Below are positions 1-64,000 of a DNA stretch of 64,000 bases, piece after piece. The stretch is taken from NCBI GenBank assembly GCA_964016885.1, contig CAXHJY010001477.1, positions 310,001 through 374,000 of the forward strand, in the 5' to 3' direction. The position numbers and the translations under genes are program-made. The DNA comes from Eledone cirrhosa. Lineage: Eukaryota. The notes beneath the pieces are model-generated. The model searched no databases and was not told where the DNA came from. It saw nothing but the letters and a program-made list of their open reading frames with translations. Every line of letters begins with the position of its first letter. Within the stretch, counting starts at the first letter, position 1.

Positions 1-2269
1 TGTGTAGGAGAGGAGATTGTGTTGGTATAGTCATGTGATGTGTATGGATGGACTGAGAGAGAAACTAGGTATAAGAGGAATCAGATGTAGTGTGTAGGAG
101 ATGAGACTGTGTTGGTATAGACATGTGATGCGTATGGATGGAGGAGAGAGAAACTAGGTATAAGAGGAATCAGATGTAGTGTGTATTAGAGGAGACTGTG
201 TTGGTATAGACATGTGATGTGTATGGATGGACTGAGAGAGAAACTAGGTATAAGAGGAATCAGATGTAGTTTGTAGGAGATGAGACTGTGTTGGTATAGA
301 CATGTGATGCGTATGGATGGAGGAGAGAGAAACTAGGTATAAGAGGAATCAGATGTAGTGTGTAGGAGATGAGACTGTGTTGGTATAGACATGTGATGCG
401 TATGGATGGAGGAGAGAGAAACTAGGTATAAGAGGAATCAGATGAAGTGTGTAGGAGAGGAGATTGTGTTGGTATAGTCATGTGATGTGTATGGATGGAG
501 AGAGAAACTAGGTATAAGAGGAATCAGATGTAGTGTGTATGAGAGGAGACTGTGTTGGTATAGACATGTAATGTGTATGGATGAACTGAGAGAGAGACTA
601 GGTATAAGAGGAATCAGATGTAGTGTGTAGGAGAGGAGACTGTGTTGGTATAAACATGTGATGTGTATGGATGGAGAGAGAGGGAAACTAGGTATGAGAG
701 GAATCAGATGTAGTGGGTAGGAGAGGAGACCGTGTTGGTATAGACATGTGATGTGTATGGATGAATTGGGAGAGAAACTAGGTATGAGAGGAATCAGATG
801 TAGTGTGTAGGAGAGGAGACTGTGTTGGTATAGACATGTGATGTGTATGGATGGACTGAGAGAGAAACTAGGTATAAGAGGAATCAGATGAAGTGTGTAG
901 GAGAGGAGACTGTGTTGGTATAGACATGTGATGTGTATGGATGGAGAGAGAAACTAGGTATAAGAGGAATCAGATGAAATGTGTAGGAGAGGAGACTGTG
1001 TTGGTATAGACATGTGATGTGTATGGATGGACTGAGAGAGAAACTAGGTATGAGAGGAATCAGATGTAGTGTGTAGGAGAGGAGACTGTGTTGGTATAGA
1101 CATGTGATGTGTATGGATGGACTGAGAGAGAAACTAAGAATAAGAGGAATCAGATGTAGTGTGTAGGAGAGGAGACTGTGTTGGTATAGACATGTGATGT
1201 GTAAGGATGGAGAGAGAAACTAGGTATAAGAGGAATCAGATGTAGTGTGTATGAGAGGAGACTGTGTTGGTATAGTCATGTGATGTGTATGGATGAACTG
1301 AGAGAGAAACTAGGTATAAGAGGAATCAGATGTAGTGTGTAGGAAAGGAGACTGTGTTGGTATAGACATGTGATGTGTATGGATGGAGAGAGAATCTAGG
1401 TATAAGAGGAATCAGATGTAGTGTGTATGAGAGGAGACTGTGTTGGTATAGTCATGTGATGTGTATGGATGAACTGAGAGAGAAACTAGGTATAAGAGGA
1501 ATCAGATGTAGGAGAGGAGACTGTGTTGGTATAGACATGTGATGTGTATGGATGAACTGGGAGAGAAACTAGGTATAAGAGGAATCAGATGTAGTGTGTA
1601 GGAGAGGAGACTGTGTTGGTATAAACATGTGATGTGTATGGATGAACTGAGAGAGAAACTAGGGATAAGAGGAATCAGATGTAGTGTGTAGGAGAGGAGA
1701 CTGTGTTGGCATAGACATGTGATGTGTATGGATGAACTGGGAGAGAAACTAGGTATAAGAGGAATCAGATGTAGTGTGTAGGAGAGGACACTGTGTTGGT
1801 ATAGACATGTGATGTGTATGGATGGAGAGAGAAACTAGGGATAAGAGGAATCAGAGGTAGTGTGTAGGAGAGGAGACTGTGTTGGCATAGACATGTGATG
1901 TGTATGGATGAACTGGGAGAGAAACTAGGTATAAGAGGAATCAGATGTAGTGTGTAGGAGAGGACACTGTGTTGGTATAGACATGTGATGTGTATGGATG
2001 GAGAGAGAAACTAGGTATAAGAGGAATCAGATGTAGTGTGTAGGAGAGGACACTGTGTTGGTATAGACATGTGATGTGTATGGATGGAGAGAGAAACTAG
2101 GTATGAGGGGAATCAGTTGTAGTGTGTAGGAGAGGAGACTGTGTTGGTATAGACATGTGATGTGTATGGATGGACTGGAAGCGAAACTAGGTATAAGAGG
2201 AATCAGATGTAGTGTGTAGGAGAGGAGACTGTGTTGGAATAAACATGTGATGTGTATGGATGAACTGAG

Positions 2270-5200
2270 AGAGAAACTAGGTATAAGAGGAATCAGATGT
2301 AGTTTGTAGGAGAGGAGACTGTGTTGGTATAGACATGTGATGTGTACGGATGAACTGGGAGAGAAACTATGTATAAGAGGAATCAGATGTAGTTTGTAGG
2401 AGAGGAGACTGTGTTGGTATAGACATGTGATGTGTATGGATGAACTGGGAGAGAAACTAGGTATAAGGGGAATCAGAAGTAGTGTGTAGGAGAGGACACT
2501 GTGTTGGTATAGACATGTGATGTGTATGGATGGAGAGAGAAACTAGGTATAAGAGGAATCAGATGTAGTGTGTAGGAGAGGAGACTGTGTTGGTATAGAC
2601 ATGTGATGTGTATGGATGAACTGGGAGAGAAACTAGGTATAAGAGGAAGCAGATGTAGTGTGTAGGAGAGGACACTGTGTTGGTATAGACATGTGATGTG
2701 TATGGATGGAGAGAGAAACTAGGTATAAGAGGAATCAGATGTAGTGTGTAGGAGAGGAGACTGTGTTGGTATAGACATGTGATGTGTATGGATGAACTGG
2801 GAGAGAAACTAGGTATAAGAGGAAGCAGATGTAGTGTGTAGGAGAGGACACTGTGTTGGTATAGACATGTGATGTGTATGGATGGAGAGAGAAACTAGGT
2901 ATAAGAGGAATCAGATGTAGTGTGTAGGAGAGGACACTCTGTTGGTATAGACATGTGATGTGTATGGATGGAGAGAGAAACTAGGGATAAGAGGAATCAG
3001 AGGTAGTGTGTAGGAGAGGAGACTGTGTTGGCATAGACATGTGATGTGTATGGATGAACTGGGAGAGAAACTAGGTATAAGAGGAATCAGATGTAGTGTG
3101 TAGGAGAGGACACTGTGTTGGTATAGACATGTGATGTGTATGGATGGAGAGAGAAACTAGGTACAAGAGGAATCAGATGTAGTGTGTAGGAGAGGAGACT
3201 GTGTTGGTATAGACATGTGATGTGTATGGATGAACTGAGAGAGAAACTAGGTATAAGAGGAATCAGATGAAGTGCGTAGGAGACGAGACTGTGTTGGTAT
3301 AGACATGTGATGTGTATGGATGGAGAGAGAAACTAGGTATAAGAAGAATCAGATGTAGAGTGTAGGACAGGAGAGTGTGTTGGTATAGACATGTGATGTG
3401 TATGGATGGAGAGAGAAACTAGGTATAAGAGGAATCAGATGTAGAGTGTAGGAGAGGAGACTGTGTTGGTATAGACATGTGATGTGTATGGATGAACTGG
3501 GAGAGAAACTAGGTATAAGGGGAATCAGATGTAGTGTGTATGAGAGGAGACTGTGTTGGTATAGTCATGTGATGTGTATGGATGAACTGGGAGAGAAACT
3601 AGGTATAAGAGGAATCAGATGTAGTGTGTTGGAGAGGAGACTGTGTTGATATAGACATGTGATGTGTATGGATGAACTGGGAGAGAAACTAGGTATAAGG
3701 GGAATCAGATGTAGTGTGTATGAGAGGAGACTGTGTTGGTATAGTCATGTGATGTGTATGGATGGACTGGGAGAGAAACAAGGTATAAGAGGAATCAGAT
3801 GTAGTGTATAGGAGTGGAGACTGTATTGGTATAGAGATGTGATGTGTATGGATGGACTGGGAGAGAAACTAGGTATAAGAGGAATCAGATGTAGTGTGTA
3901 GGAGAGGAGACTGTGTTGGTATAGACATGTGATGTGTAAGGATGGAGAGAGAAACTAGGTATAAGAGGAATCAGATGTAGTGTGTATGAGAGGAGACTGT
4001 GTTGATATAGACATGTGATGTGTATGGATGAACTGGGAGAGAAACAAGGTATAAGAGGAATCAGATGTAGTGTATAGGAGAGGAGACTGTATTGGTATAG
4101 AGATGTGATGTGTATGGATGGACTGGGAGAGAAACTAGGTATAAGAGGAATCAGATGTAGTGTGTAGGAGAGGAGACTGTGTTGGTATAGACATGTGATG
4201 TGTAAGGATGGAGAGAGAAACTAGGTATAAGAGGAATCAGATGTAGTGTGTATGAGAGGAGACTGTGTTGGTATAGTCATGTGAAGTGTATGGATGAACT
4301 GAGACAGAAACTAGGTATAAGAGGAATCAGATATAGTATGTAGGAGTGGACACTGTGTTGGTATAGACATGTGATGTGTATGGTTGAACTGGGAGAGAAA
4401 CCATATATAAGAGGAATCAGATGTAGTGCGTAGGAGACGAGACTGTGTTGGTATAGACATGTGATGTGTATGGATGGAGAGAGAAACTAGGTATAAGAAG
4501 AATCAGATGTAGAGTGTAGGACAGGAGACTGTGTTGGTATAGACATGTGATGTGTATGGATGAACTGAGAGAGAAACTATGTATAAGAGGAATCAGATGT
4601 AGTGTGTAGGAGAGGAGACTGTGTTGGTATAGACATGTGATGAGTAAGGATGGAGAGAGAAACTATGTATAAGAGGAATCAGATGTAGTGTGTAGGAGAG
4701 GAGACTGTGTTGGTATAGACATGTGATGTGTATGGATGAACTGGGAGAGAAACTAGGTATAAGAGGAATCAGATATAGTGTGTAGGAGAGGACACTGTGT
4801 TGGTATAGACATGTGATGTGTATGGATGAACTGGGAGAGAAACCATATATAAGAGGAATCAGATGTAGTGCGTAGGAGATGAGACTGTGTTGGTATAGAC
4901 ATGTGATGTGTATGGATGGAGAGAGAAACTAGGTATAAGAAGAATCAGATGTAGAGTGTAGGACAGGAGACTGTGTTGGTATAGACATGTGATGTGTATG
5001 GATGAACTGAGAGAGAAACTAGGTATAAGAGGAATCAGATGTAGTTTGTAGGAGAGGAGACTGTGTTGGTATAGACATGTGATGTGTACGGATGAACTGG
5101 GAGAGAAACTATGTATAAGAGGAATCAGATATAGTTTGTAGGAGAGGAGACTGTGTTGGTATAGACATGTGATGTGTATGGATGAACTGGGAGAGAAACT

Positions 5201-7760
5201 AGGTATAAGGGGAATCAGAAGTAGTGTGTAGGAGAGGACACTGTGTTGGTATAGACATGTGATGTGTATGGATGGAGAGAGAAACTAGGTATAAGAGGAA
5301 TCAGATGTAGTGTGTAGGAGAGGAGACTGTGTTGGTATAGACATGTGATGTGTATGGATGAACTGGGAGAGAAACTAGGTATAAGAGGAAGCAGATGTAG
5401 TGTGTAGGAGAGGACACTGTGTTGGTATAGACATGTGATGTGTATGGATGGAGAGAGAAACTAGGTATAAGAGGAATCAGATGTAGTGTGTAGGAGAGGA
5501 GACTGTGTTGGTATAGACATGTGATGTGTATGGATGAACTGGGAGAGAAACTAGGTATAAGAGGAAGCAGATGTAGTGTGTAGGAGAGGACACTGTGTTG
5601 GTATAGACATGTGATGTGTATGGATGGAGAGAGAAACTAGGTATAAGAGGAATCAGATGTAGTGTGTAGGAGAGGACACTCTGTTGGTATAGACATGTGA
5701 TGTGTATGGATGGAGAGAGAAACTAGGGATAAGAGGAATCAGAGGTAGTGTGTAGGAGAGGAGACTGTGTTGGCATAGACATGTGATGTGTATGGATGAA
5801 CTGGGAGAGAAACTAGGTATAAGAGGAATCAGATGTAGTGTGTAGGAGAGGACACTGTGTTGGTATAGACATGTGATGTGTATGGATGGAGAGAGAAACT
5901 AGGTACAAGAGGAATCAGATGTAGTGTGTAGGAGAGGAGACTGTGTTGGTATAGACATGTGATGTGTATGGATGAACTGAGAGAGAAACTAGGTATAAGA
6001 GGAATCAGATGAAGTGCGTAGGAGACGAGACTGTGTTGGTATAGACATGTGATGTGTATGGATGGAGAGAGAAACTAGGTATAAGAAGAATCAGATGTAG
6101 AGTGTAGGACAGGAGAGTGTGTTGGTATAGACATGTGATGTGTATGGATGGAGAGAGAAACTAGGTATAAGAGGAATCAGATGTAGAGTGTAGGAGAGGA
6201 GACTGTGTTGGTATAGACATGTGATGTGTATGGATGAACTGGGAGAGAAACTAGGTATAAGGGGAATCAGATGTAGTGTGTATGAGAGGAGACTGTGTTG
6301 GTATAGTCATGTGATGTGTATGGATGAACTGGGAGAGAAACTAGGTATAAGAGGAATCAGATGTAGTGTGTTGGAGAGGAGACTGTGTTGATATAGACAT
6401 GTGATGTGTATGGATGAACTGGGAGAGAAACTAGGTATAAGGGGAATCAGATGTAGTGTGTATGAGAGGAGACTGTGTTGGTATAGTCATGTGATGTGTA
6501 TGGATGGACTGGGAGAGAAACAAGGTATAAGAGGAATCAGATGTAGTGTATAGGAGTGGAGACTGTATTGGTATAGAGATGTGATGTGTATGGATGGACT
6601 GGGAGAGAAACTAGGTATAAGAGGAATCAGATGTAGTGTGTAGGAGAGGAGACTGTGTTGGTATAGACATGTGATGTGTAAGGATGGAGAGAGAAACTAG
6701 GTATAAGAGGAATCAGATGTAGTGTGTATGAGAGGAGACTGTGTTGATATAGACATGTGATGTGTATGGATGAACTGGGAGAGAAACAAGGTATAAGAGG
6801 AATCAGATGTAGTGTATAGGAGAGGAGACTGTATTGGTATAGAGATGTGATGTGTATGGATGGACTGGGAGAGAAACTAGGTATAAGAGGAATCAGATGT
6901 AGTGTGTAGGAGAGGAGACTGTGTTGGTATAGACATGTGATGTGTAAGGATGGAGAGAGAAACTAGGTATAAGAGGAATCAGATGTAGTGTGTATGAGAG
7001 GAGACTGTGTTGGTATAGTCATGTGAAGTGTATGGATGAACTGAGACAGAAACTAGGTATAAGAGGAATCAGATATAGTATGTAGGAGTGGACACTGTGT
7101 TGGTATAGACATGTGATGTGTATGGTTGAACTGGGAGAGAAACCATATATAAGAGGAATCAGATGTAGTGCGTAGGAGACGAGACTGTGTTGGTATAGAC
7201 ATGTGATGTGTATGGATGGAGAGAGAAACTAGGTATAAGAAGAATCAGATGTAGAGTGTAGGACAGGAGACTGTGTTGGTATAGACATGTGATGTGTATG
7301 GATGAACTGAGAGAGAAACTATGTATAAGAGGAATCAGATGTAGTGTGTAGGAGAGGAGACTGTGTTGGTATAGACATGTGATGAGTAAGGATGGAGAGA
7401 GAAACTATGTATAAGAGGAATCAGATGTAGTGTGTAGGAGAGGAGACTGTGTTGGTATAGACATGTGATGTGTATGGATGAACTGGGAGAGAAACTAGGT
7501 ATAAGAGGAATCAGATATAGTGTGTAGGAGAGGACACTGTGTTGGTATAGACATGTGATGTGTATGGATGAACTGGGAGAGAAACCATATATAAGAGGAA
7601 TCAGATGTAGTGCGTAGGAGATGAGACTGTGTTGGTATAGACATGTGATGTGTATGGATGGAGAGAGAAACTAGGTATAAGAAGAATCAGATGTAGAGTG
7701 TAGGACAGGAGACTGTGTTGGTATAGACATGTGATGTGTATGGATGAACTGAGAGAGAAA
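2270..7760 (+). repeat. Higher-order duplication, period 2742 bp (about 31 monomers), 2 copies
   Basis: Rare variants recur at a fixed offset: gtgtaCggatg at 2347/5089 and ggaaGcag at 2649/5391. Boundaries approximate. Confidence 0.85.
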
Positions 7761-10700
7761 CTAGGTATAAGAGGAATCAGATGTAGAGTGTAGGAGAGGA
7801 GACTGTGTTGGTATAGACATGTGACGTGTATAGATGGAGAGAGAAACTATGTATAAGAGGAATCAGATGTAGAGTGTAGGACAGGAGACTGTGTTGGTAT
7901 AGACATGTGATGTGTATGGATGGAGAGAGAAACTAGGTATAAGAGGAATCAGATGTAGTGTGTAGGAGAGGAGACTGTGTTGGTATAGACATGTGATGTG
8001 TATGGATGAACTGGGAGAGAAACTAGGTATAAGAGGAATCAGATGTAGAGTGTAGGAGAGGAGACTGTGTTGGTATAGACATGTGACGTGTATAGATGGA
8101 GAGAGAAACTATGTATAAGAGGAATCAGATGTAGTGTGTAGGAGAGGAGACTGTGTTGGTATAGACATGTGATGTGTATGGATGAACTGGGAGAGAAACT
8201 AGGTATAAGAGGAATCAGATGTAGAGTGTAGGAGAGGAGACTGTGTTGGTATAGACATGTGACGTGTATAGATGGAGAGAGAAACTATGTATAAGAGGAA
8301 TCAGATGTAGTGTGTAGGAGAGGAGACTGTGTTGGTATAGACATGTGATGTGTATGGATGAACTGGGAGAGAAACTAGGTATAAGAGGAATCAGATGTAG
8401 TGTGTTGGAGAGGAGACTGTGTTGATATAGACATGTGATGTGTATGGATGAACTGGGAGAGAAACTAGGAATAAGGGGAATCAGATGTAGTGTGTATGAG
8501 AGGAGACTGTGTTGGTATAGTCATGTGATGTGTATGGATGAACTGGGAGAGAAACAAGGTATAATAGGAATCAGATGTAGTGCGTAGGAGACGAGAATGT
8601 GATGGTATAGACATGTGATGTGTATGGATGGACTGAGAGAGAAACTAGGTATCAGAGGAATCAGGTGTGTAGGAGAGGAGACTGTGTTGGTATAGACATG
8701 TGATGTGTATGGATGGAGAGAGAAACTAGGTATCAAAGGAATCAGATGTAGTTTGTAGGAGAGGAGACTGTGTTGGTATACACATTCTATGTGTATGGAT
8801 GAATTGAGAGAGAAACTAGGTATAAGAGGAATCAGATGTAGTGTGTAGGAGAGGAGATGGTGTTGGTATAGACATGTGATGTGTATGGATGGAGAGAGAA
8901 ACTAGGTATAAGAGGAATCAGATGTAGAGTGTAGGAGAGGAGACTGTGTTGGTATAGACATGTGATGTGTATGGATGGAGAGAGAAACTAGGTATAAGAA
9001 GAATCAGTTGTAGTGTGTAGGAGAGGACACTGTGTTGATATAGACATGCGATGTGTATGGATGAACTGGGAGAGAAACTAGGTATAAGGGGAATCAGATG
9101 TAGTGTGTATGAGAGGAGACTGTGTTGGTATAGTCATGTGATGTGTATGGATGAACTGGGAGAGAAACAAGGTATAAGAGGAATCAGATGTAGTGCGTAG
9201 GAGAGGAGATGGTGTTGGTATAGACATGTCATGTGTATGGATGGAGGGAGAAACTAGTTATGAGAGGAATCAGATGTAGAGTGTATTAGAGGAGTCTGTG
9301 TTGGTATAGACATGTGATGTGTATGGATGGACTGAGAGAGAAACTAGGTATAAGAGGAATCAGATGTAGTGTGTAGGAGAGGAGACTGTGTTGGTATAGA
9401 CATGTGATGTGTATGGATGGACTGAGAGAGAAACTAGGTATGAGAGGAATCAGATGTAGTGTGTAGGAGAGGAGACTGTGTTGGTATAGACATGTGATGT
9501 GTAGGGATGGAGAGAGAAACTAGGTACAAGAGGAATCAGATGTAGTGTGTAGGAGAGGAGACTGTGTTGGTATAAACATGTGATGTGTATGGATGGAGAG
9601 GGAAACTAGTTATAAGAGGAATCAGATGTAGTGTGTATTAGAGGAGACTGTGTTGGTATAGACTGTGATGTGTATGGATGGACTGAGAGAGAAACTCGGT
9701 ATAAGAGGAATCAGATGTAGTGTGTAGGAGAGGAGACTGTGTTGGTATAGTCTTGTGATGTGTAGGGATGGAGAGAGAAACTAGGTATAAGAGGAATCAG
9801 ATGTAGTGTGTAGGAGAGGAGACTGTGTTGGTATAGACATGTGATGTGTATGGATGGAGAGGGAAAGTAGTTATAAGAGGAATCAGATGTAGTGTGTATT
9901 AGAGGAGACTGTGTTGGTATAGACTGTGATGTGAATGGATGGACTGAGAGAGAAACTAGGTATGAGAGGAATCAGATGTAGTGTGTAGGAGAGGAGACTG
10001 TGTTGGTATAGACATGTGATGTGTAAGGATGGAGAGAGAAACAAGGTATAAGAGGAATCAGATGTAGTGTGTATGAGAGGAGACTGTGTTGGTATAGTCA
10101 TGTGAAGTGTATGGATGAACTGAGACAGAAACTAGGTATAAGAGGAATCAGATATAGTGTGTAGGAGTGGACACTGTGTTGGTATAGACATGTGATGTGT
10201 ATGGATGAACTGGGAGAGAAACCATATATAAGAGGAATCAGATGTAGTGCGTAGGAGACGAGACTGTGTTGGTATAGACATGTGATGTGTATGGATGGAG
10301 AGAGAAACTAGGTATAAGAAGAATCAGATGTAGAGTGTAGGACAGGAGACTGTGTTGGTATAGACATGTGATGTGTATGGATGAACTGAGAGAGAAACTA
10401 GGTATAAGAGGAATCAGATGTAGTGTGTAGGAGAGGAGACTGTGTTGGTATAGACATGTGATGAGTAAGGATGGAGAGAGAAACTATGTATAAGAGGAAT
10501 CAGATGTAGTGTGTAGGAGAGGAGACTGTGTTGGTATAGACATGTGATGTGTATGGATGAACTGGGAGAGAAACTAGGTATAAGAGGAATCAGATATAGT
10601 GTGTAGGAGAGGACACTGTGTTGGTATAGACATGTGATGTGTATGGATGAACTGGGAGAGAAACCATATATAAGAGGAATCAGATGTAGTGCATAGGAGA

Positions 10701-12990
10701 CGAGACTGTGTTGGTATAGACATGTGATGTGTATGGATGAAGTGGGAGAGAAACTAGGTATAAGAGGAATCAGATGTAGAGTGTAGGAGAGGAGACTGTG
10801 TTGGTATAGACATGTGACGTGTATAGATGGAGAGAGAAACTATGTATAAGAGGAATCAGATGTAGAGTGTAGGACAGGAGACTGTGTTGGTATAGACATG
10901 TGATGTGTATGGATGGAGAGAGAAACTAGGTATAAGAGGAATCAGATGTAGTGTGTAGGAGAGGAGACTGTGTTGGTATAGACATGTGATGTGTATGGAT
11001 GAACTGGGAGAGAAACTAGGTATAAGAGGAATCAGATGTAGAGTGTAGGAGAGGAGACTGTGTTGGTATAGACATGTGACGTGTATAGATGGAGAGAGAA
11101 ACTAGTTATAAGAGGAATCAGATGTAGTGTGTAGGAGAGGAGACTGTGTTGGTATAGACATGTGATGTGTATGGATGAACTGGGAGAGAAACTAGGTATA
11201 AGAGGAATCAGATGTAGAGTGTAGGAGAGGAGACTGTGTTGGTATAGACATGTGACGTGTATAGATGGAGAGAGAAACTATGTATAAGAGGAATCAGATG
11301 TAGTGTGTAGGAGAGGAGACTGTGTTGGTATAGACATGTGATGTGTATGGATGAACTGGGAGAGAAACTAGGTATAAGAGGAATCAGATGTAGTGTGTTG
11401 GAGAGGAGACTGTGTTGATATAGACATGTGATGTGTATGGATGAACTGGGAGAGAAACTAGGAATAAGGGGAATCAGATGTAGTGTGTATGAGAGGAGAC
11501 TGTGTTGGTATAGTCATGTGATGTGTATGGATGAACTGGGAGAGAAACAAGGTATAAGAGGAATCAGATGTAGTGCGTAGGAGACGAGAATGTGATGGTA
11601 TAGACATGTGATGTGTATGGATGGACTGAGAGAGAAACTAGGTATCAGAGGAATCAGGTGTGTAGGAGAGGAGACTGTGTTGGTATAGACATGTGATGTG
11701 TATGGATGGAGAGAGAAACTAGGTATCAAAGGAATCAGATGTAGTTTGTAGGAGAGGAGACTGTGTTGGTATACACATTCTATGTGTATGGATGAATTGA
11801 GAGAGAAACTAGGTATAAGAGGAATCAGATGTAGTGTGTAGGAGAGGAGATGGTGTTGGTATAGACATGTGATGTGTATGGATGGAGAGAGAAACTAGGT
11901 ATAAGAGGAATCAGATGTAGAGTGTAGGAGAGGAGACTGTGTTGGTATAGACATGTGATGTGTATGGATGGAGAGAGAAACTAGGTATAAGAAGAATCAG
12001 TTGTAGTGTGTAGGAGAGGACACTGTGTTGATATAGACATGTGATGTGTATGGATGAACTGGGAGAGAAACTAGGTATAAGGGGAATCAGATGTAGTGTG
12101 TATGAGAGGAGACTGTGTTGGTATAGTCATGTGATGTGTATGGATGAACTGGGAGAGAAACAAGGTATAAGAGGAATCAGATGTAGTGCGTAGGAGAGGA
12201 GATGGTGTTGGTATAGACATGTCATGTGTATGGATGGAGGGAGAAACTAGTTATGAGAGGAATCAGATGTAGAGTGTATTAGAGGAGTCTGTGTTGGTAT
12301 AGACATGTGATGTGTATGGATGGACTGAGAGAGAAACTAGGTATAAGAGGAATCAGATGTAGTGTGTAGGAGAGGAGACTGTGTTGGTATAGACATGTGA
12401 TGTGTATGGATGGACTGAGAGAGAAACTAGGTATGAGAGGAATCAGATGTAGTGTGTAGGAGAGGAGACTGTGTTGGTATAGACATGTGATGTGTAGGGA
12501 TGGAGAGAGAAACTAGGTACAAGAGGAATCAGATGTAGTGTGTAGGAGAGGAGACTGTGTTGGTATAAACATGTGATGTGTATGGATGGAGAGGGAAACT
12601 AGTTATAAGAGGAATCAGATGTAGTGTGTATTAGAGGAGACTGTGTTGGTATAGACTGTGATGTGTATGGATGGACTGAGAGAGAAACTCGGTATAAGAG
12701 GAATCAGATGTAGTGTGTAGGAGAGGAGACTGTGTTGGTATAGTCTTGTGATGTGTAGGGATGGAGAGAGAAACTAGGTATAAGAGGAATCAGATGTAGT
12801 GTGTAGGAGAGGAGACTGTGTTGGTATAGACATGTGATGTGTATGGATGGAGAGGGAAAGTAGTTATAAGAGGAATCAGATGTAGTGTGTATTAGAGGAG
12901 ACTGTGTTGGTATAGACTGTGATGTGTATGGATGGACTGAGAGAGAAACTAGGTATGAGAGGAATCAGATGTAGTGTGTAGGAGAGGAGA
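7000..12990 (+). repeat. Higher-order duplication, period about 2993 bp
   Basis: Near-identical spurious ORFs at 8521 and 11514 (offset 2993); shared rare variants cacattctat, tcaggtgtgtagg and gtatcaaagg. The left part differs by monomer indels; boundaries approximate. Confidence 0.8.
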
Positions 12991-42978: not shown

Positions 42979-43017
42979 CAAGAAGAGGAAGCGATGCTAC
43001 ACTGAAATGATACGTAC

Positions 43018-43186
43018 CCAAAGAATTTTTAGACAGTCTACGATGAGTTAATTCCGGACATGAAAGACCATGAGAGTCTTTCCTTGAAGCTCTGTCTGAC
43101 GATCTCATCTCAGATTCTATCTCTTCCCATGCCTTGTTATCACTTAATGTGTAACCATCTGAATCGAGAGATTCTTCACTCTTCTC
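43018..43186 (-). CDS. PDZD8: Internal coding exon (169 nt, phase 0 to 1) of the PDZ-domain gene; acidic/Ser-rich linker
   Basis: Acceptor ttttgttttgtttttttactgtag|GAG and donor TTGG|gtacgt. Open frame EKSEESLDSDGYTLSDNKAWEEIESEMRSSDRASRKDSHGLSCPELTHRRLSKNSL(G); phase matches the preceding exon. The gene name rests only on linkage to the PDZ exons. Confidence 0.7.
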
Positions 43187-44590: not shown

Positions 44591-44593
44591 AAA

Positions 44594-45278: not shown

Positions 45279-45354
45279 CGAAGCTTCATCTTCATATTTT
45301 GGTTCACTGGGCTGTGTAGTACGGTGGTACTGTCTACGTAGGTGTAATGTTAGT
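45279..45354 (-). CDS. PDZD8: Internal coding exon (76 nt, phase 2 to 0), last beta-strand of the PDZ domain
   Basis: Acceptor ttgtattttgtag|A and canonical donor TCG|gtaagt. Only one frame is open, (R)LTLHLRRQYHRTTQPSEPKYEDEAS, and it is the frame required by the upstream exon (split codon AG|A = Arg). Confidence 0.85.
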
Positions 45355-46135: not shown

Positions 46136-46139
46136 TTCT

Positions 46140-46372: not shown

Positions 46373-46385
46373 AGTGTTCACTAAC

Positions 46386-46468
46386 CTTTCCCCTGCATTT
46401 TTTGTTAATTTCACAGCTTGTTTCACAGATGTAATTTTTGTTGATCCCAATGACAGGAGTATGTCATT
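46386..46468 (-). CDS. PDZD8: Internal coding exon (83 nt, phase 0 to 2), C-terminal half of a PDZ domain; PDZD8-like
   Basis: Acceptor tttctctctctctacag|AAT and donor GAAAG|gttagt. NDILLSLGSTKITSVKQAVKLTKNAGE(R) fits the PDZ GDxIL..AVxLxKxAG..LTL pattern and aligns without gaps to human PDZD8 as I recall it (GDRLIAIGGVKITSTLQVLKLIKQAGDRVLVYYER). Confidence 0.85.
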
Positions 46469-46471
46469 CTG

Positions 46472-46500
46472 TAGAGAGAGAGAAACAGTACTCTGAGAGA

Positions 46501-46588
<88 letters not shown>

Positions 46589-46615
46589 GAGAGAGGGAGA
46601 GAGAGATGGAGAGAT
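46472..46615 (+). repeat. (GA)n microsatellite, i.e. a (CT)n polypyrimidine tract abutting the exon acceptor on the minus strand
   Basis: About 120 bp of near-pure GA from 46495, plus a short GA run at 46473-46483. Confidence 0.97.
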
Positions 46616-46800
46616 AGTGATACCATTCAGGCAATCACAGACTGACAGACAATCAAACAAGACATAAATATTAATTAGAATATTAATTACAGCAGCATTT
46701 AAGACACATGTAAATATGTAAATATGACAAACATCAAAATAAAGAACTGGACAATCATTATTTGAAACTAGTTAGACCCATGGAAATTCCATAGTTGTTG

Positions 46801-46985
46801 ACATCATCATCATCATCATTTTAATGTCCGCTGTCCTTGCTAGCAAGGTTGGATGGGTCCACACAAAGTCAGTACTGAAGCAGAGCCACTGATCTTCCTG
46901 GAAGGTCAGGTCTTTCAAACAACTGAGGGTCTTCTGACACCTTTGTCAGGCAAGCTTTCTATGGCTTGATGCCCTTCTATTAAAA
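46801..46985 (-). mobile_element. Antisense SINE 3' part with RTE-type (GAT)n tail
   Basis: (cat)6 tttaatgtccgctgtccttgctagcaaggttggatggg...ggcaagctttctatggcttgatgcccttct; the reverse complement ends ccaaccttgctagc..gcggacattaaaatgatgatgat. Confidence 0.7.
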
Positions 46986-47015
46986 CAAAATAATTACTTG
47001 GACATAACATTTGTA

Positions 47016-53000: not shown

Positions 53001-56000
53001 AGAAGGATAAATCACACCTGAGTTTGTTAAATTAATCAATCACATGAAGAAGGATAAATCACACCTGAGTTTCTTAAATTAATCTAATACCTGAAGAAGG
53101 ATAAATCACACCTGAGTTTATTAAATTAATCTATCACCTGAAGAAGGATAAATCACACCTGAGTTTGTTAAATTAATCTATCACATGAAGACGGATAAAT
53201 AATACCCGAGTTTCTTAAATTAATCTATCACCTGAAGAAGGATAAATCACACCTGAGTTTGTTAAATTAATCAATCACCTGAAAAAGTATAAATCACACC
53301 AGAGTTTCTTAAATTAATCTATCACCTGAAGAAGGATAAATCATATCTGAGTTTCTTAAATTAATCTATCACCTGAAGAAGGATAAATCACACCCAAGTT
53401 TGTTAACTTAATCTATCACCTGAAGAAGGATAAATCACACCTGAGTTTCTTAAATTAATCTATCACCTGAAGAAGGAGAAATCACACCCGAGTTTCTTAA
53501 CTTAATCTATCACACGAAGAAGGATAAATCACACCTGAGTTTCTTAAATTAATCTATCACCTGAAGAAGGATAAATCACACCTGAGTTTGTTAAATTAAT
53601 CTATCACCTGAAGAAGGATAAATCACACCTGAGTTTGTTAAATTAATCTATCACCTGAAGAAGGATAAATCACACCTGAGTTTATTAAATTAATCTATGA
53701 CCTGAAAATAGATAAATAACACCTGAGTTTGTTAAATTAATCTATCACCTGAAGAAGGATAAATCACACCTGAGTTTATTAAATTAGTCTATCACCTGAA
53801 GATGGATAATTAACACCTGATTTTCTTAAATTAATCTATCACCTGAAGAAGGATAAATCACAACTCAGTTTGTTAAATTAATCAATCACCTGAAGAAGGA
53901 TAAATCACACCTGAGTTTGTTAAATTAATCAATCACATGAAGAAGGATAAATCACACCTGAGTTTCTTAAATTAATCTAATACCTGAAGAAGGATAAATC
54001 ACACCTGAGTTTATTAAATTAATCTATCACCTGAAGAAGGATAAATCACACCTGAGTTTGTTAAATTAATCTATCACATGAACACGGATAAATAATACCC
54101 GAGTTTCTTAAATTAATCTATCACCTGAAGAAGGATAAATCACACCTGAGTTTGTTAAATTAATCAATCACCTGAAAAAGTATAAATCACACCAGAGTTT
54201 CTTAAATTAATCTATCACCTGAAGAAGGATAAATCATATCTGAGTTTCTTAAATTAATCTATCACCTGAAGAAGGATAAATCACACCCAAGTTTGTTAAC
54301 TTAATCTATCACCTGAAGAAGGATAAATCACACCTGAGTTTCTTAAATTAATCTATCACCTGAAGAAGGAGAAATCACACCCGAGTTTCTTAACTTAATC
54401 TATCACACGAAGAAGGATAAATCACACCTGAGTTTCTTAAATTAATCTATCACCTGAAGAAGGATAAATCACACCTGAGTTTGTTAAATTAATCTATCAC
54501 CTGAAGAAGGATAAATCACACCTGAGTTTCTTAAATTAATCTATCACCTGAAGAAGGATAAATCACACCAGAGTTTCTTAAATTAATCTATCACATGAAG
54601 AAGGATAAATCATATCTGAGTTTCTTAAATTAATCTATCACCTGAAGAAGGATAAATCACACCCAAGTTTGTTAACTTAATCTATCACCTGAAGAAGGAT
54701 AAATCACACCTGAGTTTGTTAAATTAATCTAACACCCGAAGAAGCATAAATCACACCTGAGTTTCTTAAATTAATCTATCACCTGAAGAAGGATAAATCA
54801 CACCTGAGTTTGTTAAATTAATCTATCACCTGAAGAAGGATAAATCACACCTGAGTTTATTAAATTAATCTATGACCTGAAAATAGATAAATAACACCTG
54901 AGTTTGTTAAATTAATCTATCACCTGAAGAAGGATAAAACACAACTGAGTTTATTAAATTAATCTATCACCTGAAGATGGATAATTAACACCTGAGTTTC
55001 TTAAATTAATCTATCACCTGAAGAAGGATAAATCACAACTCAGTTTGTTAAATTAATCAATCACCTGAAGAAGTATAAATCACACCTGAGTTTGTTAAAT
55101 TAATCAATCACATGAAGAAGGATAAATCACACCTGAGTTTGTTAAATTAATCTATCACCTGAAGGATAAATCAGACCTGAGTTTCTTAAATTAATCTAAT
55201 ACCTGAAGAAGGATAAATCACACCTGAGTTTATTAAATTAATCTATCACCTGAAGAAGGATAAATTGACACCTGAGTTTGTTAAATTAATCTATCACCTG
55301 AAGAAGGATAAAACACACCCAAGTTTGTTAACTTAATCTATCACCTGAAGAAGGATAAATCACACCTGAGTTTGTTAAATTAATCTAACACCCGAAGAAG
55401 CATAAATCACACCTGAGTTTCTTAAATTAATCTATCACCTGAAGAAGGAGAAATCACACCCGAGTTTCTTAACTTAATCTATCACACGAAGAAGGATAAA
55501 TCACACCTGAGTTTCTTAAATTAATCTATCACCTGAAGAAGGATAAATCACACCTGAGTTTGTTAAATTAATCTATCACCTGAAGAAGGATAAATCACAC
55601 CTGAGTTTCTTAAATTAATCTATCACCTGAAGAAGGATAAATCACACCAGAGTTTCTTAAATTAATCTATCACATGAAGAAGGATAAATCATATCTGAGT
55701 TTCTTAAATTAATCTATCACCTGAAGAAGGATAAATCACACCCAAGTTTGTTAACTTAATCTATCACCTGAAGAAGGATAAATCACACCTGAGTTTGTTA
55801 AATTAATCTAACACCCGAAGAAGCATAAATCACACCTGAGTTTCTTAAATTAATCTATCACCTGAAGAAGGATAAATCACACCTGAGTTTGTTAAATTAA
55901 TCTATCACCTGAAGAAGGATAAATCACACCTGAGTTTATTAAATTAATCTATGACCTGAAAATAGATAAATAACACCTGAGTTTGTTAAATTAATCTATC

Positions 56001-59000
56001 ACCTGAAGGATAAATCAGACCTGAGTTTCTTAAATTAATCTAATACCTGAAGAAGGATAAATCACACCTGAGTTTATTAAATTAATCTATCACCTGAAGA
56101 AGGATAAATCACACCTGAGTTTGTTAAATTAATCAATCACATGAAGAAGGATAAATCACACCTGAGTTTGTTAAATTAATCTATCACCTGAAGGATAAAT
56201 CAGACCTGAGTTTCTTAAATTAATCTAATACCTGAAGAAGGATAAATCACACCTGAGTTTATTAAATTAATCTATCACCTGAAGAAGGATAAATCACACC
56301 TGAGTTTGTTAAATTAATCTATCACATGAAGACGGATAAATAATACCCGAGTTTCTTAAATTAATCTATCACCTGAAGAAGGATAAATCACACCTGAGTT
56401 TGTTAAATTAATCAATCACCTGAAGAAGTATAAATCACACCCGAGTTTCTTAACTTAATCTATCACACGAAGAAGGATAAATCACACCTGAGTTTCTTAA
56501 ATTAATCTATCACCTGAAGAAGAATAAATCATACCTGAGTTTCTTAAATTAATCTATCACCTGAAGAAAGATAAATCACACCTGAGTTTGTTAAATTAAT
56601 CTATCACCTGAAGAAGGATAAATCACACCTGAGTTTCTTAAATTAATCTATCACCTGAAGAAGGATAAATCACACCAGAGTTTCTTAAATTTATGTATAA
56701 CCTGAAGAAGGATAAATAACATCTGAGTTTATTAAAATTATTCTATCACCTGAAGAAGGATAAATCACACATGAGTTTGTTAAATTAATCTAACACCCGA
56801 AGATAGATAAATAACACCTGAGATTGTTAAATTACTCTATCACCTGAAGAAGGATAAATCACACCTGAGTTTATTAAATTAATCTATCACCTGAAGATGG
56901 ATAATTAACACCTGAGTTTCTTAAATTAATCTATCACCTGAAGAAGGATAAATCACAACTGAGTTTGTTAAATTAATCAATCACCTGAAGAAGGATAAAT
57001 CACACCTGAGTTTCTTAAATTAATCAATCACATGAAGAAGGATAAATCACACCTGAGTTTGTTAAATTAATCTATCACCTGAGTTTCTTAAATTAATCTA
57101 TCACCTGAAGAAGGATAAATCACACCTGAGTTTGTTAAATTAATCTATCACCTGAAGAAGGATAAATCACACCTGAGTTTATTAAATTAATCTATGACCT
57201 GAAAATAGATAAATAACACCTGAGTTTGTTAAATTAATCTATCACCTGAAGAAGGATAAATCACAACTGAGTTTATTAAATTAATCTATCACCTGAAGAT
57301 GGATAATTAACACCTGAGTTTCTTAAATTAATCTATCACCTGAAGAAGGATAAATCACAACTCAGTTTGTTAAATTAATCAATCACCTGAAGAAGTATAA
57401 ATCACACCTGTGTTTGTTAAATTAATCAATCACATGAAGAAGGATAAATCACACCTGAGTTTGTTAAATTAATCTATCACCTGAAGGATAAATCAGACCT
57501 GAGTTTCTTAAATTAATCTAATACCTGAAGAAGGATAAATCACACCTGAGTTTATTAAATTAATCTATCACCTGAAGAAGGATAAATCACACCTGAGTTT
57601 GTTAAATTAATCTATCACATGAAGACGGATAAATAATACCCGAGTTTCTTAAATTAATCTATCACCTGAAGAAGGATAAATCACACCTGAGTTTGTTAAA
57701 TTAATCAATCACCTGAAGAAGTATAAATCACACCAGAGTTTCTTAAATTAATCTATCACCTGAAGAAGGATAAATCACACCTGAGTTTGTTAAATTAATC
57801 TATCACATGAAGACGGATAAATAACACCCGAGTTTCTTAAATTAATCTATCACCTGAAGAAGGATAAATCACACCTGAGTTTGTTAAATTAATCAATCAC
57901 CTGAAGAAGTATAAATCACACCAGAGTTTCTGAAATTAATCTATCACCTGAAGGATAAATCACACCTGAGTTTCTTAAATTAATCTATCACCTGAAGAAG
58001 GATAAATCACACCCAAGTTTGTTAACTTAATCTATCACCTGAGTTTTTTAAATTAATCTATCACCTGAAGAAGGAGAAATCACACCCGAGTTTCTGAACT
58101 TAATCTATCACACGAAGAAGGATAAATCACACCTGAGGTTCTTAAATTAATCTATCACCTGAAGAAGGATAAATCACACCCGAGTTTGTTAACATAATCT
58201 ATCACACGAAGAAGGATAAATCACACCTGAGGTTCTTAAATTAATCTATCACCTGAAGAAGAATAAATCACACCAGAGTTTCTTAAATTAATCTATCACC
58301 TGAAGAAGGATAAATCATGTCTGAGTTTCTTAAATTAATTTATCACCTGAAGAAGGAGAAATCACACCCAAGTTTGTTAACTTAATCTATCACCTGAAGA
58401 AGGATAAATCACACCTGAGTTTGTTAAATTAATCTATCACCTGAAGAAGCATACATCACACCCGAGTTTGTTAAATTAATCTATCACCTGAAGAAGGATA
58501 AATCACACCTGAGTTTGTTAAATTAATCTATCACCTGAAGAAGGATAAATAACACCTGAGTTTATTAAATTAATCTATTACCTGAAGAAGGATAAATCAC
58601 ACCTGAGTTTGTTAAATTAATCTATCACATGAAGACGGATAAATAACACCCGAGTTTCTTAAATTAATCTATCACCTGAAGAAGGATAAATCACACCTGA
58701 GTTTTTCATATTAATCAATCACCTGAAGAAGCATAAATCACACCCGAGTTTGTTAAATTAATCTATCACCTGAAGAAGGAGAAATCACACCCGAGTTTGT
58801 TAACATAATCTATCACCTGAAGAAGGATAATTAACACCTGAGTTTCTGAAATTAATCTATCACCTGAAGGAGAATAAATCACACCTGAGTTTCTTAAATT
58901 AGTCTATCACCTGAAGAAGGATAAATCACACCAGAGTTTCTTAAATTAATCTATCACCTGAAGAAGGATAAATCACACCTGAGTTTGTTAAATTAATCAA

Positions 59001-62000
59001 TCACCTGAAGAAGGAGAAATCACACCTGACTTTGTTAAATTAATCTATCACCTGAAGAAGTATAAATCACACCAGAGTTTCTTTAATTAATCTATCACCT
59101 GAAGAAGGATAAATCACACCTGAGTTTCTTAAATTAATCAATCACCTGAAGAAGTATAAATCACACCAGAGTTTCTTAAATTAATCTATCATCCCAAGAA
59201 GGATAAATCACGTCTGAGCTTCTTAAATTAATCTATCACCTGAAGAAGGATAAATCACACCCGAGTTTGTTAACATAATCTATCACCTGAAGAAGGATAA
59301 ATCACGTCTGAGTTTCTTAAATTAATCTATCACCTGAAGAAGGATAAATCACACCCAAGTTTGTTAACTTAATCTATCACCCGAAGAAGGATAAATCACA
59401 CCTGAGTTTCTTAAATTAATCTATCACCTGAAGACGGATAAATAACACCCGAGTTTCTTAAATTAATCTATCACCTGAAGAAGGATAAATCACACCTGAG
59501 TTTCTTAAATTAATCAATCACCTGAAGAAGTATAAATCACACCAGAGTTTCTTAAATTAATCTATCACCTGAAGAAGGATAAATCATACCTGAGTTTGTT
59601 AAATTAATCTATCACCTGAAGAAGGATAAATAACACCCGAGTTTCTTAAATTAATCTATCACCTGAAGAAGGATAAATCACACCTGAGTTTGTTAAATTA
59701 ATCTATCACCTGAAGAAGGAGAAATCACACCCGAGTTTCTGAACTTAATCTATCACACGAAGAAGGATAAATCACACCTGAGGTTCTTAAATTAATCTAT
59801 CACCTGAAGAAGAATAAATCACACCAGAGTTTCTTAAATTAATCTATCACCTGAAGAAGGATAAATCATGTCTGAGTTTCTTAAATTAATCTATCACCTG
59901 AAGAAGGAGAAATCACACCCAAGTTTGTTAACTTAATCTATCACCTGAAGAAGGATAAATCACACCTGAGTTTCTTAAATTAATCTATCACCTGAAGAAG
60001 CATAAATCACACCCGAGTTTGTTAAATTAATCTATCACCTGAAGAAGGATAAATCACACCTGAGTTTGTTAAATTAATCTATCACCTGAAGAAGGATAAA
60101 TAACACCTGAGTTTATTAAATTAATCTATCACCTGAAGAAGGATAAATCACACCTGAGTTTGTTAAATTAATCTATCACATGAAGACGGATAAATAACAC
60201 CCGAGTTTCTTAAATTAATCTATCACCTGAAGAAGGATAAATCACACCCGAGTTTTTCATATTAATCAATCACCTGAAGAAGCATAAATCACACCCGAGT
60301 TTGTTAAATTAATCTATCACCTGAAGAAGGAGAAATCACACCCGAGTTTGTTAACATAATCTATCACCTGAAAAAAGGATAAATCACACCTGAGTTTCTG
60401 AAATTAATCTATCACCTGAAGGAGAATAAATCACACCTGAGTTTCTTAAATTAGTCTATCACCTGAAGAAGGATAAATCACACCACAGTTTCTTAAATTA
60501 ATCTATCACCTGAAGAAGGATAAATCACACCTGAGTTTGTTAAATTAATCAATCACCTGAAGAAGGAGAAATCACACCTGACTTTGTCAAATTAATCTAT
60601 CACCTGAAGAAGTATAAATCACACCAGAGTTTCTTTAATTAATCTATCACCTGAAGAAGGATAAATCACACCTGAGTTTCTTAAATTAATCAATCACCTG
60701 AAGAAGTATAAATCACACCAGAGTTTCTTAAATTAATCTATCACCCCAAGAAGGATAAATCACGTCTGAGCTTCTTAAATTAATCTATCACCCGAAGAAG
60801 GATAAATCACACCCGAGTTTGTTAACATAATCTATCACCTGAAGAAGGATAAATCACGTCTGAGTTTCTTAAATTAATCTATCAGCTGAAGAAGAATAAA
60901 TCACACCTGAGTTTCTTAAATTAATCTATCACCTGAAGAAGGCTAAATCATGTCTGATTTTCTTAAATTAATCTATCACCTGAAGAAGGAGAAATCACAC
61001 CCAAGTTTGTTAACTTAATCTATCACCTGAAGAAGGAGAAATCACACCTGAGTTTGTTAAATTAATCTATCACCTGAAGAAGGATAAACCACACCCGAGT
61101 TTCTTAAATTAATCTATCACCTGAAGAAGCATAAATCACACCCGAGTTTGTTAAATTAATCTATCACCCGAAGAAGGATAAATCACACCTGAGTTTGTTA
61201 AATTAATCTATCACCTGAAGAAGGATAAATCACACCTGAGTTTATTAAATTAATCTATCACATGAAGACGGATAAATAACACCCGAGTTTCTTAAATTAA
61301 TCTATCACCTGAAGAAGGATAAATCACACCCGAGTTTTTTATATTAATCAATCACCTGAAGAAGCATAAATCACACCCGAGTTTGTTAAATTAATCTATC
61401 ACCTGAAGAAGGAGAAATCACACCCGAGTTTGTTAACATAATCTATCACCTGAAGAAGGATAAATCACACCTGAGTCTCTGAAATTAATCTATCACCTGA
61501 AGGAGAATAAAGCACATCTGAGTTTCTTAAATTAGTCTATCACCTGAAGAAGGATAAATCACACCAGAGTTTCTTAAATTAATCTATCACCTGAAGAAGG
61601 ATAAATCACACCTGAGTTTGTTAAATTAATCAATCACCTGAAGAAGTATAAATCACACCAGAGTTTCTTAAATTAATCTATCACCTGAAGAAGGATAAAT
61701 CACACCTGAGTTTCTGAAATTAATCTATCACCTGAAGAAGGATAAATAACATCTGAGTTTCTTAAAATTAATCTATCACCTGAAGAAGGATAAATAACAC
61801 CTGACTTTGTTAAATTAATCTATCACCTGAAGAAGTATAAATCACACCAGAGTTTCTTTAATTAATCTATCACCTGAAGAAGGATAAATCACACCTGAGT
61901 TTGTTAAATTAATCTATCACATGAAGACGGATAAATAACACCCGAGTTTCTTAAATTAATCTATCACCTGAAGAAGGATAAATCGCACCCGAGTTTGTTA

Positions 62001-64000
62001 ACATAATCTATCACCTGAAGAAGGATAAATCACGTCTGAGTTTCTTAAATTAATCTATCACCTGAAGAAGGATAAATCACACCCAAGTTTGTTAACTTAA
62101 TCTATCACCCGAAGAAGGATAAATCACACCTGAGTTTCTTAAATTAATCTATCACCTGAAGACGGATAAATAACACCCGAGTTTCTTAAATTAATCTATC
62201 ACCTGAAGAAGGATAAATCACACCTGAGTTTCTTAAATTAATCTATCACCTTAAGAAGGATAAATCATACCTGAGTTTGTTAAATTAATCTATCACCTGA
62301 AGAAGGATAAATAACACCCGAGTTTCTTAAATTAATCTATCACCTGAAGAAGGATAAATCACACCTGAGTTTGTTAAATTAATCTATCACCTGAAGAAGG
62401 AGAAATCACACCCGAGTTTCTGAACTTAATCTATCACACGAAGAAGGATAAATCACACCTGAGGTTCTTAAATTAATCTATCACCTGAAGAAGTATAAAT
62501 CACACCAGAGTTTCTTAAATTAATCTATCACCTGAAGAAGGATAAATCATGTCTGAGTTTCTTAAATTAATCTATCACCTGAAGAAGGAGAAATCACACC
62601 CAAGTTTGTTAACTTAATCTATCACCTGAAGAAGGATAAATCACACCTGAGTTTCTTAAATTAATCTATCACCTGAAGAAGCATAAATCACACCCGAGTT
62701 TGTTAAATTAATCTATCACCTGAAGAAGGATAAATCACACCTGAGTTTGTTAAATTAATCTATCACCTGAAGAAGGATAAATAACACCTGAGTTTATTAA
62801 ATTAATCTATCACCTGAAGAAGGATAAATCACACCTGAGTTTGTTAAATTAATCTATCACATGAAGACGGATAAATAACACCCGAGTTTCTTAAATTAAT
62901 CTATCACCTGAAGAAGGATAAATCACACCCGAGTTTTTCATATTAATCAATCACCTGAAGAAGCATAAATCACACCCGAGTTTGTTAAATTAATCTATCA
63001 CCTGAAGAAGGAGAAATCACACCCGAGTTTGTTAACATAATCTATCACCTGAAGAAGGATAAATCACACCTGAGTTTCTGAAATTAATCTATCACCTGAA
63101 GGAGAATAAATCACACCTGAGTTTCTTAAATTAGTCTATCACCTGAAGAAGGATAAATCACACCAGAGTTTCTTAAATTAATCTATCACCTGAAGAAGGA
63201 TAAATCACACCTGAGTTTGTTAAATTAATCAATCACCTGAAGAAGGAGAAATCACACCTGACTTTGTCAAATTAATCTATCACCTGAAGAAGTATAAATC
63301 ACACCAGAGTTTCTTTAATTAATCTATCACCTGAAGAAGGATAAATCACACCTGAGTTTCTTAAATTAATCAATCACCTGAAGAAGTATAAATCACACCA
63401 GAGTTTCTTAAATTAATCTATCACCCCAAGAAGGATAAATCACGTCTGAGCTTCTTAAATTAGTCTATCACCTGAAGAAGGATAAATCACACCCGAGTTT
63501 GTTAACATAATCTATCACCTGAAGAAGGATAAATCACGTCTGAGTTTCTTAAATTAATCTATCACCTGAAGAAGAATAAATCACACCTGAGTTTCTTAAA
63601 TTAATCTATCACCTGAAGAAGGCTAAATCATGTCTGATTTTCTTAAATTAATCTATCACCTGAAGAAGGAGAAATCACACCCAAGTTTGTTAACTTAATC
63701 TATCACCTGAAGAAGGAGAAATCACACCTGAGTTTGTTAAATTAATCTATCACCTGAAGAAGGATAAACCACACCCGAGTTTCTTAAATTAATCTATCAC
63801 CTGAAGAAGCATAAATCACACCCGAGTTTGTTAAATTAATCTATCACCCGAAGAAGGATAAATCACACCTGAGTTTGTTAAATTAATCTATCACCTGAAG
63901 AAGGATAAATCACACCTGAGTTTATTAAATTAATCTATCACATGAAGACGGATAAATAACACCCGAGTTTCTTAAATTAATCTATCACCTGAAGAAGGAT
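47016..64000 (+). repeat. AT-rich 47-bp tandem satellite (about 360 copies)
   Basis: Consensus atcacacctgagttt(g/c/a)ttaaattaatctatcacctgaagaaggataa. Period 47 (e.g. 47581 to 47628), head-to-tail, no spacers, truncated by the right window edge. Confidence 0.99.

Follow-up and report, generated by a model that had tools for sequence, protein, structure and literature searches.

The closest described parallels to the locus analyzed here come from Drosophila. The testis-only Y genes kl-3 and kl-5 have megabase introns of simple repeats (PMC6508621), and Drosophila heterochromatic genes have transposon-rich introns, enlarged about tenfold (PMC4981424, PMC9563267). In addition, satellites derived from the coding regions of long interspersed nuclear elements (LINEs) are known, including PROsat, from ORF2 (open reading frame 2) of L1, and the chicken HinfI satellite, from CR1 (PMC9659126). 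We analyzed a 64,000-nucleotide stretch of the genome of the octopod Eledone cirrhosa (C1504:310001-374000; hereafter the window, meaning this whole stretch), in which three exons of the conserved gene PDZD8 lie between two long tandem arrays. Our analysis indicates, with good confidence, that this is an intact octopod PDZD8 whose introns carry long tandem arrays of differing units, and that these arrays are likely tolerated passengers, grown in place and likely transcribed as pre-mRNA and spliced out.

The assembly comprises 3.0 Gb in 1,796 contigs, and the host scaffold C1504 has 842,314 bases with 0 N. Tandem Repeats Finder (TRF) delimited a 90-bp array at window positions 1-42420 and a 47-bp array at positions 47016-64000, which hold 476 and 364 units, respectively, by anchor counts. 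The island between both arrays (42421-47015, 4.6 kb) contains exons 10-12 of PDZD8 on the minus strand, and the gene features of the window are the following:

46386..46468, minus strand: PDZD8 exon 10 (83 nt), encoding residues 366-392 and with them the second half of the PDZ domain; acceptor ...ctctacag, donor gttagt
45279..45354, minus strand: PDZD8 exon 11, 76 nt, residues 393-418
43018..43186, minus strand: PDZD8 exon 12 (169 nt), encoding residues 419-474; phase 1 at its 3' end, where it meets a GT (donor gtacgt) and no stop
46469..64000, minus strand: window part of PDZD8 intron 9; full intron 179,820 nt, with the end of exon 9 at C1504:536289
1..43017, minus strand: window part of PDZD8 intron 12; full intron 57,128 nt, with the start of exon 13 at C1504:295889, 104 nt past the array
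46495..46614, minus strand: (TC)n microsatellite directly upstream of the exon 10 acceptor, lengthening its pyrimidine tract

An earlier note on this DNA had described three phase-compatible exons in a 4.6-kb island, and both the island and the phases (0-2-0-1) are as it proposed; the two junctions that it listed, 46386>45354 and 45279>43186, are exact in our splice-site gene model. It was also right that the first exon opens at an acceptor in the middle of a PDZ domain, given that exon 10 starts at residue 366, within the PDZ_6 match (349-400) of the orthologues (searched alone against Pfam, exon 10 reaches PDZ_6 at an E-value of 0.098, below the significance cut-off), and that the last exon of the island runs into a GT donor without a stop. 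Identity to the Octopus vulgaris PDZD8 is far above chance in all three exons (100% in exon 10, 88% in exon 11, and 86% in exon 12), and exon 12 alone matches 2 of 25 candidates, both named PDZD8, from Octopus bimaculoides (86%) and Argonauta hians (79%).

Searches of the whole scaffold by tblastn located the remaining PDZD8 exons in protein order on either side of the arrays. The splice-site model built on them has 23 exons, all with GT-AG introns, and an open frame of 1,405 amino acids that aligns to O. vulgaris at 84% identity over 1,207 columns and to Argonauta at 81% over ~1,210 residues, so that the PDZD8-like identity proposed in the earlier note now extends to exon cover of the whole protein. 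Identity to O. vulgaris is 72-100% in each of exons 1-22 and 41% in the low-complexity exon 23. Exons out of order beyond the arrays had been named in the earlier note as the observation that would undo its proposal; exons 1-22 are all on one strand and collinear, spanning 476,435 nt of C1504. The gene therefore continues through both arrays, as claimed, and both are intronic, with the at least 17 kb of 47-mer seen in the window growing to 115.3 kb and the at least 42 kb of 90-mer to 56.4 kb.

Exon 23 was found on C28 (136.5 Mb), 14.9 kb from a 200-N gap at C28:11,913,304, which suggests that C1504 likely fits that gap and that PDZD8 would extend over at least 633 kb. On this placing, 4,218 nt of coding sequence are distributed over a locus of at least 633,065 nt, more than 99% of which is intron. 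Both the SMP part and the last exon of PDZD8, the two parts searched genome-wide, have one genomic locus each. Pfam matches to MMM1, PDZ, and C2 on PDZD8 orthologues (P0006, P0002), carried over via the 83-100% exon identity, place the SMP, PDZ, and C2 domains in order, a feature of the PDZD8 family. Exons 18-19 encode a Cys/His-rich stretch that is 100% identical to O. vulgaris and has no C1 Pfam match at an E-value of 0.001. In mammals, PDZD8 acts in lipid transfer at endoplasmic reticulum contact sites. The candidate explanation of an orphan duplicate or pseudogene was ruled out by the other exons in order, the open frame, and the single locus of the two parts tested.

These same observations bear on whether the gene is read through whole. 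Since continuity of the transcript is deduced from DNA, PDZD8 could in principle be silent, or its parts could be joined by trans-splicing; we find this scarcely credible, taking into account the open frame and high conservation, the single copy of both tested ends, the arrangement of exons 1-22 on one strand and in order, and the fact that even the megabase introns of Y genes get read through (PMC11207136). From the structure of the gene, RNA polymerase II (Pol II) would be expected to read through the arrays.

Arrays of at least 1 kb account for 372,793 of the 613,914 intron bases on this scaffold (61%) and are present in 10 of 22 introns, the other 12 having none. The introns with the most prominent arrays are the following:

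Intron 2, 54.5 kb: 23-mer array of 38 kb
Intron 9, 179.8 kb: 38-mer of 45.8 kb, then a 2-kb truncated LINE, then the 47-mer of 115.3 kb, stopping 547 nt before exon 10
Intron 12, 57.1 kb: 90-mer of 56.4 kb, stopping 104 nt before exon 13
Intron 14: 49-mer of 12.3 kb
Intron 15, 56.6 kb: four short arrays amid LINEs, each of 1.6-3.6 kb
Intron 17, 33.9 kb: 28-mer of 31.8 kb
Intron 22, no shorter than 155 kb and interrupted by an assembly gap: a 25-kb 9-mer together with eight smaller arrays

Introns 9, 12, and 17 consist of arrays over 90-99% of their length, and intron 9 is the largest closed intron of the gene (179.8 kb). The units are mostly 23-99 bp long; one array, of 25 kb, is of a 9-mer. 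Hence the two intron-filling satellites of the earlier note are both real, and the picture they gave was incomplete: it missed the second array of intron 9, the arrays of at least 1 kb in seven or more other introns, and the derivation of several units from LINEs described below.

Like the Y-loop genes kl-3 and kl-5, PDZD8 is more than 99% intron and has satellite inside its introns (PMC6508621, PMC11207136), and in both cases the non-coding part is mainly satellite. The likeness drawn in the earlier note holds to this extent and was otherwise overstated: Y-loop genes are Y-linked, expressed only in spermatocytes, served by dedicated RNA-binding proteins, and have megabase introns of simple repeats, whereas the satellite-filled introns of PDZD8 measure 57-180 kb and are made of units mostly of 23-99 bp; neither megabase introns nor simple 5-10 bp units characterize this gene. 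The PDZD8 family, moreover, is broadly expressed. We consider its build closer to that of Drosophila pericentric heterochromatic genes, which are single-copy and conserved, have enlarged introns filled with repeats, and lie beside megabase satellite blocks, the last of these probably applying to PDZD8 as well (see below). Large repeat-rich introns are shared by both; unlike the transposon-rich introns of the Drosophila genes, those of PDZD8 are 61% tandem arrays, up to 115 kb long, with a unit that differs in nearly every intron.

The origin of one of these units can be read directly. The features concerned, both in the window, are the following:

1..42420, plus strand: 90-bp satellite whose units are predominantly 90 or 86 bp long; the array continues outside the window to 56.4 kb in all (C1504:295994-352420), or 98.8% of intron 12
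42421..42600 (end approximate), plus strand: LINE reading continued past the last 90-mer unit

On the plus strand, the 90-mer corresponds to 30 decayed codons from the C-terminal region of a LINE reverse transcriptase. A matching upstream piece of LINE lies at the opposite end of the array, and the LINE reading is collinear across it; with LINE reading on both flanks, the array lies inside a single LINE copy that runs antisense to PDZD8. The unit and both flanks have 57-60% protein identity to LINE frames, which contain RVT_1, endonuclease, and PHD domains and which we take to belong to the RTE clade. RTE/Bov-B is a main LINE clade of O. bimaculoides (bioRxiv 10.1101/2024.02.21.581452). An 8-nt direct repeat, ATGGATGA, is present at both ends of the 90-mer seed, and non-amplified single copies of the segment, 68-78% identical, occur on C3, C4, and C5. 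Genome-wide, the 90-mer family has 3,909 exact 29-mer matches, 304 of them at the PDZD8 locus. A sister array on C18 (C18:5358548-5460500) covers 101 kb or more (spaced probes, 10 of 14 positive), has many 83-bp units, and begins at an assembly gap; another, on C9, is without the upstream LINE flank. From these two comparisons, intron 12 may be near the origin of the family. The 90-mer thus resembles PROsat and HinfI in having a unit taken from a LINE coding region, and differs from them in that the array still lies within its parent LINE copy, in an intron of a conserved gene, with flank-less sister arrays elsewhere.

Other arrays of the locus are associated with LINEs as well. A 130-kb 54-mer array (C1504:624187-754151) starts 7.3 kb upstream of the PDZD8 start codon and is also nested in a LINE frame with collinear flanks; beyond it lie a 14-mer (10 kb) and then a 65-mer (76 kb) up to the scaffold end. 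The same 49-mer forms an array of 12.3 kb in intron 14 (C1504:268870-281192) and one of 9.4 kb in intron 22 (124034-133440), each of them at the 5' end of a LINE copy; the two copies are near-identical members of one subfamily and lie in opposite orientation. The 48- and 72-mers have 36-47 matches in non-array DNA. A 255-bp segment of intron 10 (window 45608-45862) has a 99% identical copy in intron 20 (C1504:150615-150869).

Within both window arrays, blocks of 4-5 kb recur as exact copies at offsets of 3-11 kb, which suggests recent block amplification, and 67-73% of the 1,000-mers in these arrays are unique (55-100% across five big arrays), suggesting that they are mostly resolvable by long reads. 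We also considered that the arrays were mis-sized or misjoined by the assembler, and that the true introns differ much in length or content. C1504 is unplaced and 70% arrays, the exact 4-5 kb duplications could be assembler expansions, and, although contigs from two runs of one sample (possibly the assembled animal) fill 30 of 30 bins of the island, none of the contigs listed bridges it entirely. Set against this are the 842 kb free of N, the correct exon order over every array, the predominance of unique 1,000-mers in each of the five big arrays, the shift of unit variants along the 47-mer array, and the collinear LINE reading through the 90-mer array, which together make a gross assembly error very improbable. 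Restriction-site-associated DNA (RAD) reads from two other samples, part of a second study, cover only the repeats of the island; they include head-to-tail joints of the 47-mer (119 and 75 reads), indicating that this array is not peculiar to the assembled animal.

To place these introns in context, we compiled exon matches of four gene families (rows used: 56 of 59, 11 of 11, 69 of 72, and 87 of 87), dropping single or intronless matches. In 50 other genes, matched exons are separated by 173 gaps with a median of 1.7 kb, of which 3 are at least 50 kb, bearing in mind that exon-match gaps overstate introns where exons were missed. The largest gap of the set belongs to a myosin IX gene (C3:716466-1200575, minus strand; head region mapped), with introns of ~145, 67, 53, and 148 kb. 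Exon matches of this gene run uninterrupted along the query, and 19 of 24 probes in its introns are fully tandem, with units of 22, 29, 34, 40, 42, 48 bp and others; a 40-mer extends over at least 60 kb and a 34-mer over at least 125 kb. A divergent second myosin (C6:99967001-100003000) has a 45-mer in 5 of 10 probes, extending over at least 36 kb between two matched exons, and the third large gap, on C11, holds simpler repeats. Myosin IX, which is built likewise, rules out array-filled introns as a trait specific to PDZD8 and points to a property of the genome and the neighbourhood instead.

The neighbourhood of exon 23 is rich in satellites. Tandem repeat makes up most of 12 of 14 probes around it, and 4 of 20 mid-chromosome probes at round positions are pure tandem repeat; the 70 kb immediately around exon 23 contain only one array, of 0.8 kb. 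All seven spaced probes in C28:10500001-11800600 consist of one 23-bp satellite, the nearest lying 97 kb from exon 23. Reading the probes as continuous, this is likely a block of at least 1.3 Mb and a centromere candidate, and the tandem probes around exon 23 together with this block suggest that PDZD8 likely flanks a satellite block of megabase size, given the same continuity and the placing of C1504 at the C28 gap. The view of the earlier note that such introns would be unusual for PDZD8 in particular was accordingly too strong, as myosin IX has the same build in this genome. C28 is numbered after much smaller chromosomes, and sex chromosomes are often numbered thus in curated assemblies. 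Coleoid Z chromosomes are LINE-rich (bioRxiv 10.1101/2024.02.21.581452).

A strand rule for intronic arrays (a pyrimidine-rich sense strand with loss of AATAAA) was tried and dropped on mixed evidence: the pyrimidine fraction exceeds 0.5 on the sense strand in 10 of 14 PDZD8 arrays, AATAAA occurs in the 47-mer at the background rate, and the myosin probes point both ways.

The array upstream of exon 10 deserves separate treatment. Its window part is the following:

47016..64000, minus strand: 47-bp satellite, part of a 115.3-kb array (C1504:357016-472303) of ~2,450 units

The 47-mer is specific to this locus, as all 528 exact 35-mer matches in the genome fall inside this array, and a seed search gave 0 matches in the non-array DNA examined; at its 5' end the array abuts a truncated LINE. 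The satellites Cast1-9 of Tribolium castaneum likewise form long arrays (up to ~112 kb) in gene-rich euchromatic regions revealed by long reads, and differ in being nine widespread families, as opposed to a single-locus 47-mer; the word 'intron' is absent from the main text of that report (bioRxiv 10.1101/2023.04.24.538079).

On the gene strand, 1,978 of the 2,314 full-length 47-mer units keep a pyrimidine tract followed by AG|GT. Scored with matrices built from the 22 introns of PDZD8 itself, the acceptor of these units has a median of 9.3, compared with 8.1 at the true exon 10 acceptor and a lower quartile of 7.3 among true acceptors. Sites of this kind number 38 in 625 kb of non-array DNA, or 0.003 per 47 nt. 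The 28-mer array also has acceptor-like sites, without the GT. The cell must either ignore or use the acceptor-like sites of the 47-mer. The recursive splice sites known from long introns of Drosophila and vertebrates are isolated, conserved points whose donors are strong, and the 47-mer resembles them in placing AG|GT after a pyrimidine tract, that is, a strong acceptor followed by GT. The array could therefore be a working recursive-splicing ladder, each unit offering a 3' site and then a 5' site by which the 180-kb intron is removed stepwise; the acceptor scores within the range of the gene's true acceptors and the restriction of the signal to the gene strand, far above random expectation, are in line with this. 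We nevertheless think it unlikely. The regenerated donor is weak (5.1 vs 7.4 for that of exon 9, with a lower quartile of 5.06 among true donors), the AG|GT columns are 93-98% invariant, as other columns of the unit are, and so carry no signal of selection, and AG|GT on the gene strand is absent from the 13 other scored intronic arrays of PDZD8 and from 22 myosin probes. In addition, the feature was spotted post hoc, after many arrays had been inspected, and the matrix comes from only 22 introns. Unlike known recursive sites, these are ~2,000 tandem copies, candidate sites by sequence, with weak donors and no conservation above background. As a general trait of intronic arrays, AG|GT was ruled out by the myosin probes. 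The broader proposal that combines a ladder of ~2,000 points in the 47-mer with an octopod class of ordinary genes (PDZD8 and myosin IX) whose expression requires hundreds of kb of locus-specific satellite to be transcribed and processed strikes us as improbable to the same degree.

Public PDZD8 models of other octopuses (P0001, P0003-P0007) are split or truncated. PDZD8 of O. bimaculoides is annotated as two proteins, covering exons 1-7 and 10-23, and in O. sinensis one piece, with exons 5-9, is on a 15.8-kb contig and another, with exons 13-21, on a 52.7-kb contig. Several of the breaks are at introns 9 and 12, a hint that repeats make these introns difficult to assemble in other octopuses too; others are at introns 7 and 21. 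The tail in which the O. vulgaris model ends has no relation to the other orthologues and is probably an artefact of annotation. Such breaks could also arise if large intron size itself were selected, through transcription delay or a special expression programme as in Y-loop genes, with satellites as the current filler. The O. bimaculoides and O. sinensis fragments do start or stop at the giant introns (exon 10 is the start of two of them and exon 13 of one, and another stops in exon 9), and size conserved without sequence conservation has been argued to imply function (PMC6508621). Against selection on size, exons 13-21 of O. sinensis fit within a 52.7-kb contig, compared with 146 kb here, so that intron size is not fixed, and the introns of PDZD8 are about 10 times shorter than those of Y-loop genes; we judge this explanation decidedly unlikely. 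In the open-access literature we found no report of satellite-filled introns in cephalopods or of PDZD8 in octopus, which is weak evidence of absence; the main text of PMC13652810 has neither 'satellite' nor 'tandem repeat', and PMC12506533, PMC11602149, and PMC13652810 offer no closer parallel.

Taken together, we favor the growth of tolerated passenger arrays in place within an intact PDZD8. In this scenario, LINEs and other dispersed repeats would first insert into introns; a short piece would then be duplicated by slippage between short direct repeats, such as the 8-nt repeat at the ends of the 90-mer seed; and unequal exchange would inflate the array to tens of kb, leaving exact internal block duplications of 4-5 kb. 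Growth would be tolerated because the domain is satellite-rich and probably both heterochromatic and low in recombination, and because exon definition would still find the short exons. Pol II would read through as in any intron. The same process would act in other genes of this genome, making it a trait of the genome or neighbourhood and not of PDZD8.

Several observations weigh against this scenario. Gaps of at least 50 kb make up 5 of 22 in PDZD8 and 3 of 173 in the 50 other genes; the rarity of such introns elsewhere suggests that something local sets PDZD8 apart and leaves neutrality unproven. The ~2,000 acceptor-like sites that outscore the real exon 10 acceptor should carry a cost if the 47-mer were purely passive, and the breaks of other octopus models at the same introns could mean conserved large size and not drift. 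No seed for the 47-, 23-, or 65-mers was found in the non-array DNA examined. The heterochromatic, low-recombination domain is a putative step, and a comparison of the C1504 ends with the edges of the C28 gap found no overlap, a point that bears on the presumed placing of C1504.

Satellite-filled giant introns have been studied almost only in testis-specific fly Y genes, and here ordinary conserved genes bear arrays of 30-150 kb with a different unit per intron. The structure described explains the piecemeal annotation of octopus PDZD8 and warns that such genes may be split or missing in cephalopod assemblies. It also makes several processes testable: the route from a LINE fragment to a satellite, the transcription of satellites in normal tissue, and splicing past or through the ~2,000 acceptor-like sites that precede an 83-nt exon. 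Since the 47-mer is found nowhere else in the assembly, its RNA would be mappable and could be probed without ambiguity. As a second ordinary gene, myosin IX, has the same build, the cells of this octopod likely transcribe through such repeats routinely.

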